Below are positions 3,710 through 24,123 of a stretch of 30,646 nt of DNA, one piece after another. The stretch comes from Patescibacteria group bacterium (GTDB lineage Bacteria > Patescibacteriota > Microgenomatia > UBA1400 > MFAQ01), in contig JBBTWQ010000041.1 of NCBI GenBank assembly GCA_038062695.1, positions 1 through 30,646 on the forward strand. The letters are read 5' to 3'. Each line of letters begins with the position of its first letter. The first letter of the stretch is position 1. The position numbers were made by a program, and so were the translations under genes. Under the pieces are notes generated by a model. It made no database searches. It was not told the DNA's origin and saw only the letters and a list, made by a program, of their open reading frames with translations.

Positions 3710-4854
3710 TGAAGAGGTATTTCCTAAAGACATTTGGCTGTCAAGCCAATAAATCCGATTCCGAACGGATCGCCGGCGATTACCAGTCGCGGGGGTGGGA
3801 ACCCTCCGACCGCTGGCAGGATGCCGCTGAAATCGTCATCAATACTTGTTCGGTTCGGGAGCGCGCCGAAGACCGGGTCAAAGGTTTTCTTCTCAATGTC
3901 GAAAAGCATTTTCACGGCCGGCGCCGGCCGAAGATCATTCTCACCGGCTGCATGCTCCACCACGGGGCGGGGAAAATAAAAGCCGCCTTGCCTCTTGTTG
4001 ACGAAATTCTGCCCATCGGTGAAGTCGGTTTCAATTCCCCCGCCGTCAGAGGCGACAAAACTCACGCCTTTGTCCCCATCTCCACCGGCTGTAATTCTTT
4101 TTGCACTTTCTGTATCGTCCCTTACTCACGGGGGCGGGAAAAAAGCCGCCGGTCTTCCGACATCCTGGCCGAAGTCAAGGGACTTGCCGCTACCGGCTAC
4201 ACCGAAATTACCCTCCTTGGCCAAAACGTCAACTCCTATGGACTGGAAAAAGCGGGCATCGGCTACCGGAAGTTGCTTATGAGCCGCGAAGGCTTTAGCC
4301 TGAAAGATATCCCCAGCAACCAATCACAATATTTCCCACCCGATGGCGTTCCCCCCTTCGTCACTTTGCTCCGCCAGATTAGCCAGATCGCCGGTATCGA
4401 GAAAATTAACTTTATGACCAGCAATCCTTGGGACTTCGCCGACGTTCTGATCGCCGAGATTGCCGCTAACGGCAAAATCAGCCGCTTTGTCCATTTGCCG
4501 GTTCAGTCGGGCAGCGACCGGATTTTATCCCTCATGAATCGCGGCTATACCCGCGCCGATTTCCTCACTTTAATTAATAAAATCAAAAAGGCAATTCCCG
4601 ATGTTACCTTTGGCACCGACATCATCGTTGGTTTTCCGGGAGAAACGGATACCGACTTTAAAGAAACAGTCGATTTAGTTAAACAGGTCGATTTTCAGAT
4701 CGCCTTTGTCGCCCAGTATTCTCCCCGTCCCGGTACCGCCGCCTGGCGCATCTATCCGGACGATGTTCCTGCTAAAGTAAAGAAAGAGCGCTTCCGCATT
4801 TTAGAAGAACTGACCAACCAGGCCCACCTGCACCACCGACCCCATGTCCCCTAA
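3709..4854 (+). CDS. miaB: tRNA methylthiotransferase MiaB-like radical SAM enzyme, no TRAM domain
   Basis: TFGCQAN, NTCSVR, TGCM (UPF0004 domain); GCNSFCTFC CxxxCxxC; HLPVQSGSD; DIIVGFPGET; TAATG overlap with the HU stop; adjacent to miaA. Confidence 0.9.
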   Translation: MKRYFLKTFGCQANKSDSERIAGDYQSRGWEPSDRWQDAAEIVINTCSVRERAEDRVKGFLLNVEKHFHGRRRPKIILTGCMLHHGAGKIKAALPLVDEILPIGEVGFNSPAVRGDKTHAFVPISTGCNSFCTFCIVPYSRGREKSRRSSDILAEVKGLAATGYTEITLLGQNVNSYGLEKAGIGYRKLLMSREGFSLKDIPSNQSQYFPPDGVPPFVTLLRQISQIAGIEKINFMTSNPWDFADVLIAEIAANGKISRFVHLPVQSGSDRILSLMNRGYTRADFLTLINKIKKAIPDVTFGTDIIVGFPGETDTDFKETVDLVKQVDFQIAFVAQYSPRPGTAAWRIYPDDVPAKVKKERFRILEELTNQAHLHHRPHVP

Positions 4855-5764
4855 ATCCCGCGTCCTCATCATCGCCGGCCCTACTGCTTCAGGTAAGACC
4901 GCTCTCGCTCTTCGCCTCGCCGAAGTCTCGACGAAGGCGGGCCGGCGGCCCACCTCGATCATTTCTGCCGACTCCCGTCAGGTTTATCAGGGCCTCGACG
5001 TCTTGACCGGCAAGGATATCCCCGCCGAAAAAGCCAACCTCCGTTTGTTCGGCCTCGATCTCATCGCTCCTGATCAGACAATGAATGCCGCCCAGTATTC
5101 TGACTACGCCCGAAAAGTTATCGCGCTTGAAATCAAAGAGCACCGTCAAGTCATAATCGTCGGCGGTACCGGTTTTTATCTCCAGGCCCTGGTCGGCCCG
5201 GCCAGCCTCGCCGCCGTCGCTCCCAATGACCGCCTCAGACAGGAATTAAACCGGCTCCCGCTGGGAGAGCTTCAACATAGACTAAAAGAGATCGACGCCA
5301 AAAGACTGGCCGCCATGAACCAGTCCGACGTCGCCAATCCCCGCCGCCTCATTCGCGCCATCGAAATCGCTCTTGCTCCTACAAGGACTGTCCTCGTAGG
5401 GGGATTGGGCTACGAGGACAGTCCTTGTAGGTTTACCTGGATCGGCATTAGAGTTCCTCTTACAATTCTTAAAGAAAGAATCGCCGCCCGCGTCGAAGCT
5501 CGTCTTGATGCGGCTGTAACTGAGGTCCAAGACCTCCTCGCCGCCTACCCCGACCGGTCTCTTCCTATTTATACCTCGCTTGGCGTTGCCCCCATCTCGC
5601 GCTTTCTGGCTGGCGCAATTAGCCGCGGGGAAGCCCGACAACTCTGGACGACCGAAGAAGTCCAGTACGCCAAACGCCAATTGACCTGGTTTGCCAAACA
5701 GCAACAAATAATTTGGTATGATCTAGATGAGGTTAGTAAATTAAATTTAGATAAACTCGTATGA
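4844..5764 (+). CDS. miaA: tRNA dimethylallyltransferase
   Basis: GPTASGKT, SADSRQVY, IVGGTGFYL, NPRRLIRAIEI, YAKRQLTWF. Confidence 0.96.
   Translation: MSPKSRVLIIAGPTASGKTALALRLAEVSTKAGRRPTSIISADSRQVYQGLDVLTGKDIPAEKANLRLFGLDLIAPDQTMNAAQYSDYARKVIALEIKEHRQVIIVGGTGFYLQALVGPASLAAVAPNDRLRQELNRLPLGELQHRLKEIDAKRLAAMNQSDVANPRRLIRAIEIALAPTRTVLVGGLGYEDSPCRFTWIGIRVPLTILKERIAARVEARLDAAVTEVQDLLAAYPDRSLPIYTSLGVAPISRFLAGAISRGEARQLWTTEEVQYAKRQLTWFAKQQQIIWYDLDEVSKLNLDKLV
5378..5431. repeat. Perfect 22-bp inverted repeat (54-bp REP-doublet-like hairpin) in frame inside miaA
   Basis: CCTACAAGGACTGTCCTCGTAG (5378-5399), loop GGGGATTGGG, CTACGAGGACAGTCCTTGTAGG (5410-5431). Confidence 0.95.
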
Positions 5765-6789
5765 GCAGCAAAAAAATAACCGTCGATCTATCTTTCCGCA
5801 GTTACATTCTGGCGGTTATCGTCCTTCTCTCCATTCTCTTCTTCCAGAACATTCTCGGTATTTTGATACTGGTCTTTGTCTCTTTTCTCATCACTGTCGC
5901 CGTCGTCCCCTTTGTCGATTTTCTCGAGAGAAAACGTATTCCCCGAGGGCTGTCCACTTTTATCATCCTCCTTTTGATCTTTTCCGGCATCATTACCCTA
6001 GCTGTTTCCATGATCTCACCCTTGATTTCGCAAACGATCGGTTTCCTTCAACAGCTCCCCCCCCTGATTGCGCGACTCGCTCCCTACAATATCGACCTCT
6101 CGGGAGCCTTGACCCCCCAAATCACCTCTGTCCCGGGTAACGTCCTAAAACTAGCCGCCGGCACCTTTTCCAGCCTCTTGGCCCTTTTCACCGTCATTGT
6201 CATTAGTTACTATCTGGTCGCCGAGCGTTCTCACCTCAAAACCCGCCTCGAGTCTTGGTTTGACGCCGCCCGCGCCAAAAGATACCTTCATTCGGTCGAA
6301 GAACTCGAAAAACGTCTCGGTTCCTGGGTCAGGGGTCAAATTTTCCTCATGTTTCTGGTCGGTTTCCTAAGTTATATCGGCTTTGTCTTCATCGGCTTGC
6401 CGTCAGCCGTGCCCTTGGCCGTGATTGCTGGCGTTCTCGAACTGCTCCCGAACGTTGGTCCGACCGTTGCCGCCGTTCCGGCCGTGATTGTTGGTTTCTC
6501 AATCTCACCCACCCATGGCCTCCTCGCCCTCGGCTTGACCATCCTGATCCAACAGCTGGAAAATAATGTCTTTGTTCCGAAAATCATGCAGCACGCCACC
6601 GGCCTTCACCCCGTCGCCACCATCCTCGTTTTGATGATCGGTTATCGCCTGGGTGGTCCCCTTCTGGCCGTCCTTGCCCTGCCCCTGGTCCTCAGTTTGC
6701 TGTTAGTTATCTCCCACCTCCACACTCCGACAAAAGAGGGTCTGGGTGAGGAAATCAAAGAAGAAATCAAGAAAGATCTTTCCCTTTAA
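5761..6789 (+). CDS. AI-2E family transporter
   Basis: Multiple TM helices; WVRGQ, ELLPNVGP, IQQLENN...PKIM, GLHP motifs. Confidence 0.93.
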   Translation: MSSKKITVDLSFRSYILAVIVLLSILFFQNILGILILVFVSFLITVAVVPFVDFLERKRIPRGLSTFIILLLIFSGIITLAVSMISPLISQTIGFLQQLPPLIARLAPYNIDLSGALTPQITSVPGNVLKLAAGTFSSLLALFTVIVISYYLVAERSHLKTRLESWFDAARAKRYLHSVEELEKRLGSWVRGQIFLMFLVGFLSYIGFVFIGLPSAVPLAVIAGVLELLPNVGPTVAAVPAVIVGFSISPTHGLLALGLTILIQQLENNVFVPKIMQHATGLHPVATILVLMIGYRLGGPLLAVLALPLVLSLLLVISHLHTPTKEGLGEEIKEEIKKDLSL

Positions 6790-23187: not shown

Positions 23188-24123
23188 ATGGATACCCCGG
23201 CCCTGGCCAGTTCTGCTCTCGGCGCTCTCCAAAGGAGAAAAGAGCTCCTTAACCAAAAACTTTTAAAACACAAAGCCGCCCGCAGTTTTTTTGGCAAGGC
23301 CTCCCTGATCGCCTACGACTTACGGCAGAAATCCACCCGTCTTCTCGCCGGCGCCGGTCTAACCGGGGCCCTTTTACTCTCTCCGATGGCCCTGCCTGCG
23401 TTGACCGGGCAAACGACCCGGGTAGTCAAAACCGAGACCACGGCCGCCGTCCTCATGCGCACCCTCGCCCCCATCACCCCCCATACCCCGGCCAAACTCG
23501 AAGAAGATCAAGCCAAAAAAATCGAATCTGCCATTTACGCCGCAACCGGTCTTCCCGCCAAAATGGTCCTAGAAGGCCAACAGCTCAATCACCAGGTCGG
23601 CTACATCGGTTACGAACAGCATTTACGCCGTTTTCCCGGTGATACCCTTCTTGAGCACGATGACGAGCAGATTGCCGGTATCGCTCCGGGCCTGGGAGCC
23701 TGGGGTTACTTCACCAGAAGCAAAAGCGAATTCACCACCCAGGATTACCTGCGGGAAAAATGGTATTCGGTTGCCCAAACTCTCTATCTGCCCAACTGGA
23801 ATACCGACTTTGTTCACCTGCGCGATTGGTACAAATATCGAAAGATTCTGGTCGTCAACCCGGCCAACGGCACCGCCGTCGTCACTGTTTTGGGCGATGC
23901 CGGCCCGGCCAAATGGACCGGCAAACAATTCGGCGGTTCCCCCGAAACGATGAAAGCCCTCAATCTGCACAAAGGGCCGCGCAAGGGCCTGGTGCTATTC
24001 TTATTCTTAGACGACCCGGAGAACCTCATCCCCCTGGGCCCGGTTACCCACGCCATCACCCCCGAGGTGGCCCGAAGGGATTCCTCGGGGGTGTCTGTTA
24101 TTCAACACAAAATAAACCCATGA
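23188..24123 (+). CDS. Hypothetical membrane-anchored protein with a possible RlpA-like double-psi beta-barrel C-terminus
   Basis: Hydrophobic LLAGAGLTGALLLSPMALPAL; VVNPANGTAVVTVLGDAGP resembles the RlpA V.N..NG..V.V...D.GP motif. Confidence 0.65.
   Translation: MDTPALASSALGALQRRKELLNQKLLKHKAARSFFGKASLIAYDLRQKSTRLLAGAGLTGALLLSPMALPALTGQTTRVVKTETTAAVLMRTLAPITPHTPAKLEEDQAKKIESAIYAATGLPAKMVLEGQQLNHQVGYIGYEQHLRRFPGDTLLEHDDEQIAGIAPGLGAWGYFTRSKSEFTTQDYLREKWYSVAQTLYLPNWNTDFVHLRDWYKYRKILVVNPANGTAVVTVLGDAGPAKWTGKQFGGSPETMKALNLHKGPRKGLVLFLFLDDPENLIPLGPVTHAITPEVARRDSSGVSVIQHKINP
24057..24093. repeat. REP-like hairpin at the 3' end of the 23188-24123 ORF
   Basis: CACCCCCGAGG (24057-24067) / CCTCGGGGGTG (24083-24093) perfect 11-bp arms; inner CCC-GAA-GGG. 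Confidence 0.85.

Follow-up and report, generated by a model that had tools for sequence, protein, structure and literature searches.

A perfect palindrome read in frame within miaA of a Patescibacteria genome as a probable inverted dimer of REP-type hairpin units

A perfect 54-bp palindrome lies in frame within the miaA gene at positions 5378–5431 of the window (the whole stretch of 30,646 nucleotides that was analyzed). It is best explained as a head-to-head dimer of a REP-type hairpin unit, whose family co-evolves with genes for RAYT-like Y1 (HUH) enzymes in Microgenomates (family of Ca. Collierbacteria) and which resides here in a tolerant linker of the MiaA protein; we assign this reading a probability of roughly 0.7. 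The original prediction, made from the DNA letters of the window, was largely right on the kind of object (REP-like, RAYT-linked, and read in frame) and wrong on detail.

The two 22-nt arms of the palindrome (5378–5399 and 5410–5431) are 100% complementary and 10 nt apart, exactly as predicted (22/22 positions, 10-nt loop), and form by far the longest inverted repeat of the 30.6-kb window. Each arm carries the predicted motif AGGACWGTCCT, which occurs in the window exactly these two times versus an expectation of 0.03 in shuffled sequences; hand arithmetic puts the number of perfect 22-nt inverted repeats with short spacers expected in 30 kb at approximately 1e-7. Folding of positions 5378–5431 yielded −44.2 kcal/mol for RNA (z = −6.6) and −25.4 kcal/mol for DNA (z = −13), and an Rfam search of positions 5250–5560 with E-values up to 1 returned no known RNA family. 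Each arm represents a 23-nt near-palindromic unit, and the object is thus an inverted dimer of hairpin units. Unit 1 (5378–5400) is located on the minus strand, where it reads CCTACGAGGACAGTCCTTGTAGG (G·T wobble form), and unit 2 (5409–5431, plus strand, GCTACGAGGACAGTCCTTGTAGG) matches the reverse complement of unit 1 at 22/23 positions, all but the first. The 8-nt spacer between the units (5401–5408) forms, together with positions 5400 and 5409, the 10-nt loop of the long hairpin. In its general form, the hairpin unit is the 23-nt sequence CCTACRAGGACWGTCCTYGTAGG, or 25 nt with an R...Y closing pair, with a stem of 10–11 bp; single 23-nt units fold as stems of 9–11 bp. The dimer is translated as P179–R196 of MiaA: unit 1 contributes PTRTVLVG (phase 0) and unit 2 (G)YEDSPCR (phase 1), directly before a conserved Phe codon, TTT. 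As the GTAG variant of the unit contains TAG in one phase on both strands, just one of the three reading frames is open for the dimer.

Positions 4800–5800 of the window were matched with 0 differences by Logan contigs assembled from groundwater runs of two studies at a depth of 18–20, and these runs may include the source samples. A third Logan run contained a strain with 17 differences downstream and none within the palindrome, and a fourth a strain variant with the single change G5414A and the palindrome retained. This population variant converts the G·T wobble of unit 2 into an A-T pair and disrupts the corresponding pair in the long hairpin. Since independent contigs and strain variants reproduce the palindrome, it is real DNA.

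The host gene miaA encodes a tRNA dimethylallyltransferase in a 306-codon ORF on the plus strand (4844–5764; PF01715 IPPT, E = 2e-45). Judged by its sequence, it is an intact host gene, and every family-invariant residue is present in its product. The dimer is in phase with this ORF because its first base lies 534 nt, i.e. 178 × 3, behind the first base of the gene (5378 minus 4844); the predicted start on a codon boundary was confirmed, as was the encoded peptide PTRTVLVGGLGYEDSPCR directly after RRLIRAIEIALA. The gene miaB is located directly upstream and overlaps the start of miaA, and the miaA stop codon overlaps the start of a downstream gene for an AI-2E family transporter (ATGA, 5761–5764).

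The dimer occupies most of a hypervariable linker, I175–R196 (5366–5431, plus strand), which lies between the helix 166–177 and the strand 195–203 of MiaA. The length of this linker ranged from 15 to 58 amino acids among 110 homologues, so that the predicted variability of the site was borne out. An AF2 model of the protein had a mean pLDDT of 89.4, with values below 50 and coil geometry for residues 182–189; the dimer-containing linker is thus predicted to be disordered. With the dimer, the linker comprises 22 amino acids versus 18–21 in four of five sister lineages and 27 in the fifth, and the net gain over most sister lineages amounts to only approximately one to four residues. These near-equal lengths indicate that the dimer replaces the native linker rather than adding 18 residues to it. 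The clean insertion of 18 codons that had been proposed was accordingly rejected, with four of the five sister linkers just one to four residues shorter and one longer. Translational bypass and RNA excision were also discarded: the hairpin contains no stop codon, and its removal would leave a linker of four amino acids compared with a family minimum of 15.

A MiaA protein of 96% identity from another sample has an identical linker, whereas the dimer is absent from five sister MiaA lineages (73–77% identity, linkers of 18–27 amino acids) and altogether from 106 of the 110 homologues. Its presence in its own and the 96% lineage, together with its absence from the 73–77% sisters in the MiaA tree, indicates that it was gained or renewed on its own branch. 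The alignment of miaA orthologues suggested in the original prediction therefore gave the anticipated absence of the dimer in five sister lineages, but a replaced linker in place of an exact 18-codon gap.

The genome (G000; 578 kb in 78 contigs, 50% GC, 90.6% complete) contains four units of the miaA type at three loci, two of which are intragenic. All four units represent one oriented sequence, CCTACGAGGACAGTCCTTG[T/C]AGG, when read on the strand with G·T at positions 6/18, and the 16-mer of the unit, with four occurrences, is tied for the second most abundant of the genome. Outside miaA, a copy with one mismatch is located inside a ychF-like ORF, 60 nt from a contig end (C5:4546–4568), and a truncated copy (C44:4801–4818) lies between a TAA TAG stop on one side and a scaffold gap of 100 N on the other, directly adjoining both. 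The miaA palindrome thus belongs, as predicted, to a dispersed, REP-like family; the search for single and double copies that had been proposed yielded these two further single copies but no second doublet of the miaA-type unit. At the ychF site, orthologues read GKPAREILSGDEEWELAADL, and this genome reads GKPARTVLVG-GEVELAADL: the unit has taken the place of native codons, at a net cost of one codon. The native ychF site of a congener is 15/23 identical to a unit variant (counted by hand). The N-terminal half of ychF is absent from the assembly, and in the congener G002 the ychF contig breaks at the same place. Contig ends or scaffold gaps at or beside units were observed at C5:4546–4627, at C44:4701–4818, and at the end of contig C47 of G002.

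Of 44 genomes belonging to the same GTDB family, 11 contain the unit with at most two mismatches, most of them in one sister genus, and relatives have up to 13 units per genome; a reversed control gave 0 matches. Among GTDB species representatives, the exact degenerate pattern retrieved 86 distinct units in 67 stretches labelled Ca. Collierbacteria, Beckwithbacteria, Woesebacteria, or Microgenomates. Stem positions 4/20 are Watson–Crick paired in 72 of these units (G-C, T-A, and A-T pairs), and positions 6/18 are occupied by G-C in 35, by A-T in 32, and by the G·T wobble class in 19. Across the 86 units, the family conserves its hairpin through compensatory changes. GTAG is located inside the stem at both ends (CCTAC/GTAGG) and is substituted by GCAG or GAAG in most relatives. 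A logo of the flanks of 84 units revealed just the R...Y extension of the stem, with no target-site duplication and no conserved target or flank. Consistent with the in-frame residence inside genes that had been predicted, 59 of the 86 units (69%) lie within stop-free frames of at least 150 amino acids; the same applies to 85% of the bases in those loci. As frame-preserving copies alone survive in intact ORFs, a bias toward lengths of 3n, which had been put forward as a test, is unusable for this purpose. Comparison of unit-bearing ORFs with the orthologues of this genome revealed both clean additions of 8–10 amino acids and cases without a change in length.

Doublets elsewhere in the family have spacers of 4, 14, and 25 nt. 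The proposed REPIN-like nature of the miaA palindrome consequently holds for inverted REPs with a short spacer that form one long hairpin, but not for a doublet as the replicating unit, as this genome has no second doublet and the spacers differ elsewhere. Behind many units, part of their own 3′ half is repeated in tandem, e.g. ...GAAGGtcttgaaggt (L084, L103, L119, L123, and others; C13:87–125 in this genome), and one sub-family has extended flanks of the form GGGAACCGAG-unit-CGYAAYAGATAYRYA. An uptake-signal-like sequence was considered and dropped, with just tens of copies per genome.

The family is associated with genes for putative Y1 enzymes: 21 of the 86 units (24%) are located in, or at most 200 nt from, ORFs of approximately 230 amino acids with HUH and YxHxN motifs. 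In the usual arrangement, such a gene has one unit upstream, one or two in frame within the ORF (behind codon ~55 and immediately behind YIHRNP), and another at the stop codon. These ORFs matched PF01797 with 36–49 bits (cutoff 23) and contain the motifs NHFH and YIHxN; their best NCBIfam model was NF047646, REP-associated tyrosine transposase, with scores of 33–55 bits, below the cutoff of 80. A PDB sequence search with the RAYT-like protein gave no match at an E-value of 0.01.

Two PF01797 genes are present in this genome, on contigs C77 and C29; the search proposed for a nearby IS200/RAYT gene thus found such genes in the genome, but neither is near miaA. The C77 gene (L053:660–1375; gene 711–1355) carries a different, related hairpin (type B), TCWAGAGGTCSGACCTCTWGA, which lies upstream of the gene (668), in frame immediately behind YIHLN (1154), and at its stop codon (1353). 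Five lineages (C77 plus L158, L159, L048, and L041), other species of the genus among them, share this layout of three positions, each with its own hairpin. An identical layout with a different hairpin in each lineage indicates that hairpin and enzyme change together, as in REP/RAYT systems. With approximately 12 copies, TCWAGAGGTCSGACCTCTWGA is the most abundant 16-mer of the genome; several copies lie inside large ORFs, and type-B hairpins were located inside ORFs of 1188, 452, 249, and 222 amino acids. Type-B and related hairpins, two dimers included, occur at C2:5147–5188, C57:8784 and 9522, C61:3201–3245, C13:87, and C8:7440, in frame in ORFs of 1188, 249, 452, 222, and 491 amino acids. 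One translated hairpin is positioned between the HTPGS and GD/LF motifs of an MBL-fold protein. The in-frame location of these hairpins within large ORFs indicates that translated hairpins are general in this genome.

The C29 Y1 gene (L054:1267–1950; 227 amino acids, YVHLNPYTGSVVK...) is packed between acetyl-CoA synthetase-like and rsmI-like genes and has orthologues in congeners. No hairpins of the family flank this gene, which may have been domesticated. No cognate RAYT with the miaA-type hairpin was found beside miaA or elsewhere in the assembly, the hairpin of the C77 gene being different and the C29 gene having none; because the C77 hairpin differs, the miaA dimer is without a cognate enzyme in the 90.6% complete assembly. 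The predicted link to RAYT genes therefore stands for sister genera, where the 21 gene-associated units are found, but not for the miaA subtype in this assembly, and mobilisation in this genome is accordingly hypothetical.

The miaA linker is a recurrent site of palindromes. Two further MiaA clades (63% and 50% identity) contain inverted dimers of the same family at the same codon boundaries. In all three clades, the dimers start four codons past ...AIE, extend as CCTAC...GTAGG, and are followed by the Phe codon TTT; those of the 63% and 50% clades are built from other unit variants, with spacers of 14 and 25 nt. When the three dimers were compared, both members of 6 of the 22 arm pairs had changed, and all 66 pair cells were intact (0 broken). 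A MiaA tree calculated with the linker left out separates the three dimer carriers into different clades, and its well-supported branches require three changes or more. The dimers may be old, with arms evolving in concert and loss from most lineages, or each genome may have re-written the site time and again with its current variant.

At least four other palindrome families were found in the miaA linkers of relatives. A GTCATTSCGA...GSAATC family with 18–34 copies per genome is present in the linker of G010 and G020, a CACCCCTGGGG...CCCCAGGGGTG hairpin fills that of the congener G003 (L009), and further linkers contain tandem repeats or peptides typical of more palindrome families. In the relative G002 (76% identical MiaA), a single degenerate unit, CCTTCAGGGTCCGTCCCCGAAGG, lies in the linker and is read in the same frame. 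In the GTCATTSCGA...GSAATC family, the ends are conserved and the inner hairpin varies in a compensatory manner; this family occurs in the genome under study at C12:122, C21:27932, C37:2561, and C62:633, and all 18 copies of the closed one-contig genome G010 are on one strand. In the window itself, a perfect hairpin with 11-nt arms at 24057–24093, CACCCCCGAGG...CCTCGGGGGTG, resembles the hairpin in the G003 linker.

According to the preferred reading, the dimer sequence would have been copied into, or renewed at, miaA from another member of the family, either by RAYT action on single-stranded hairpin DNA or by short-patch conversion, and most of the native linker would have been overwritten in this process. 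The exactly inverted arms would then reflect either a young dimer or homogenisation of the arms through the hairpin. Persistence of the dimer would be explained by a linker that tolerates any sequence of at least approximately 15 amino acids and by a reading frame that is the sole one of three without TAG. The dimer most likely has no host function, and the 22-bp stem of its RNA form might, at most, delay translation or recruit RNase III. Against the preferred reading stand the presence of only three loci in the genome, the lack of a RAYT gene with this hairpin subtype in the assembly, and the missing target-site duplication, and the replacement of native codons, instead of an addition to them, differs from what simple transposition predicts. 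A Microgenomates REP/RAYT system that acts mainly inside coding sequence and by exchange instead of insertion, with the Y1 enzyme re-writing hairpin or hairpin-like sites with the current variant of the genome, is a tentative proposal that we consider possible but doubtful. If true, it would account for perfect dimers that recur at exactly the same codons of the linker in three MiaA clades, for genome-specific variants at the same sites of orthologous genes, and for copies that overwrite native codons at unchanged length. The Y1 enzyme's own ORF embeds its hairpin at fixed positions.

The compensatory dimers of three clades could alternatively point to long-term maintenance of the long hairpin, and hence to a function, instead of a neutral passenger. 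The hairpin would then be an old resident of the miaA linker kept base-paired for a role at this locus, either in RNA, as a 22-bp signal for RNase III or for ribosome pausing by which miaA and the overlapping transporter gene are tuned, or in DNA, as a binding or nicking site for the RAYT-like protein. The identical boundaries in the 96%, 63%, and 50% clades, the paired changes in the arms with no pair broken, a gene for RNase III in the genome, and the stability of the RNA stem (−44 kcal/mol) all agree with such a role, which we nevertheless regard as quite unlikely: nearly all MiaA homologues, the five nearest sister lineages included, do without the dimer, and unrelated palindrome families at the same place in other relatives argue for tolerance, not need. 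In addition, the spacers differ (10, 14, and 25 nt), the stem has no Rfam match, and G5414A breaks a pair of the long stem yet improves the unit hairpin. The distribution among homologues and this variant make a regulatory role of the RNA stem in particular unlikely.

A local origin would differ from the preferred reading in the last step only. An older single unit would have been copied in inverted orientation by fold-back (template-switch) synthesis, and hairpin-templated repair would keep the arms identical, so that no transposase would have acted on the doublet. Units 1 and 2 are exact reverse complements of each other, the three asymmetric positions included, the varying spacers of dimers at different loci argue against a fixed REPIN unit, the G002 linker contains its single degenerate unit in the same frame, and partial half-unit duplications adjoin many units. 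We consider this origin unlikely, as it leaves unexplained the first unit and the near-identical copies in ychF and on contig C44. Hardly any weight can be given to an assembly error or to native coding sequence that is palindromic by chance. The genome is a fragmented MAG of 78 contigs, and its two other copies are located at a contig end and at a gap edge, but the contigs of two studies and the two strain variants rule out an artefact, the negligible expectation for both the motif and the inverted repeat rules out coincidence, and related copies are found in many genomes.

The miaA dimer adds another case to a known but rare class of intragenic repeats. REP hairpins and their Y1 enzymes have so far been studied mainly in Proteobacteria, as extragenic elements; the results presented here show that REP-type hairpins and Y1 enzymes are present also in CPR bacteria with genomes smaller than 1 Mb. 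In the literature searched, no description of such elements in CPR bacteria was found. Since CPR genomes have almost no intergenic space, the hairpins reside in genes and are translated, which would account for odd low-complexity loops in annotated CPR proteins and, at the level of assembly, for contig breaks at hairpin sites. The miaA linker provides a natural series, with several palindrome families at one site and compensatory dimers in three lineages, that can be used to distinguish spread by transposition, by conversion, and by enzyme-guided replacement. These same-site compensatory dimers are the part most deserving follow-up.

Several known systems resemble the miaA dimer in part. In IS200/IS605 elements, subterminal hairpins are acted on by TnpA, a Y1 HUH transposase; the PF01797 match makes it likely that in the family described here, too, a Y1 enzyme recognises a hairpin on single-stranded DNA. 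Unlike in those elements, the hairpins are not the ends of a multi-copy insertion sequence that carries its transposase, and no conserved target tetranucleotide was seen. Rickettsia RPE-1, reportedly described by Ogata and coworkers in 2000, is said to be palindromic selfish DNA of approximately 100–150 bp that resides in frame in housekeeping proteins; it has no known transposase. Both elements are palindromic DNA translated in frame as extra surface segments of a housekeeping protein in a reduced genome, but the miaA element has 54 bp, is built from 23-nt units, and belongs to an unrelated sequence family. A MITE differs by its target-site duplication, which was not observed around 84 units.

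In REPIN–RAYT systems (Bertels & Rainey 2011, PMC3116915; Bertels et al. 2017, PMC5581495), hairpin and enzyme change together between lineages (PMC5581495). The family described here shares with them this joint change, the inverted REPs that form a long hairpin, and a low-copy Y1 gene flanked by its own hairpin. It differs in that no doublet with a fixed spacer is repeated, the elements are not extragenic, the RAYT-like genes score below the NCBIfam cutoff (33–55 versus 80 bits) and contain the hairpin inside their own ORF, and the RAYT-like gene of this genome carries another hairpin subtype.

The closest counterparts are the intragenic GTAG/CGTC-tagged REPs (Di Nocera et al. 2013, PMC3733652), 20–40 bp stem-loops that lie in frame inside ORFs, for example in Opitutus terrae and as RPE-4/-6 in Rickettsia conorii. 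More than half of these intragenic inserts are dimers that encode 20–30 amino acids, their sub-families are set by compensatory and G·T variants of the stem, and GTAG families are associated with RAYT genes; RPE-1 is cited there as well (PMC3733652). In contrast to these REPs, GTAG is located here in the stem at both ends (CCTAC...GTAGG), varies (GCAG, GAAG), and does not form an unpaired terminal tag; most members are intragenic (69%), whereas there they are a minority, and the family here is further distinguished by tens of copies per genome, a CPR host, and several copies that overwrite native codons. Common to both are a short stem-loop in frame within an ORF, its occurrence as a dimer, compensatory and G·T variants, and the link to RAYT genes.
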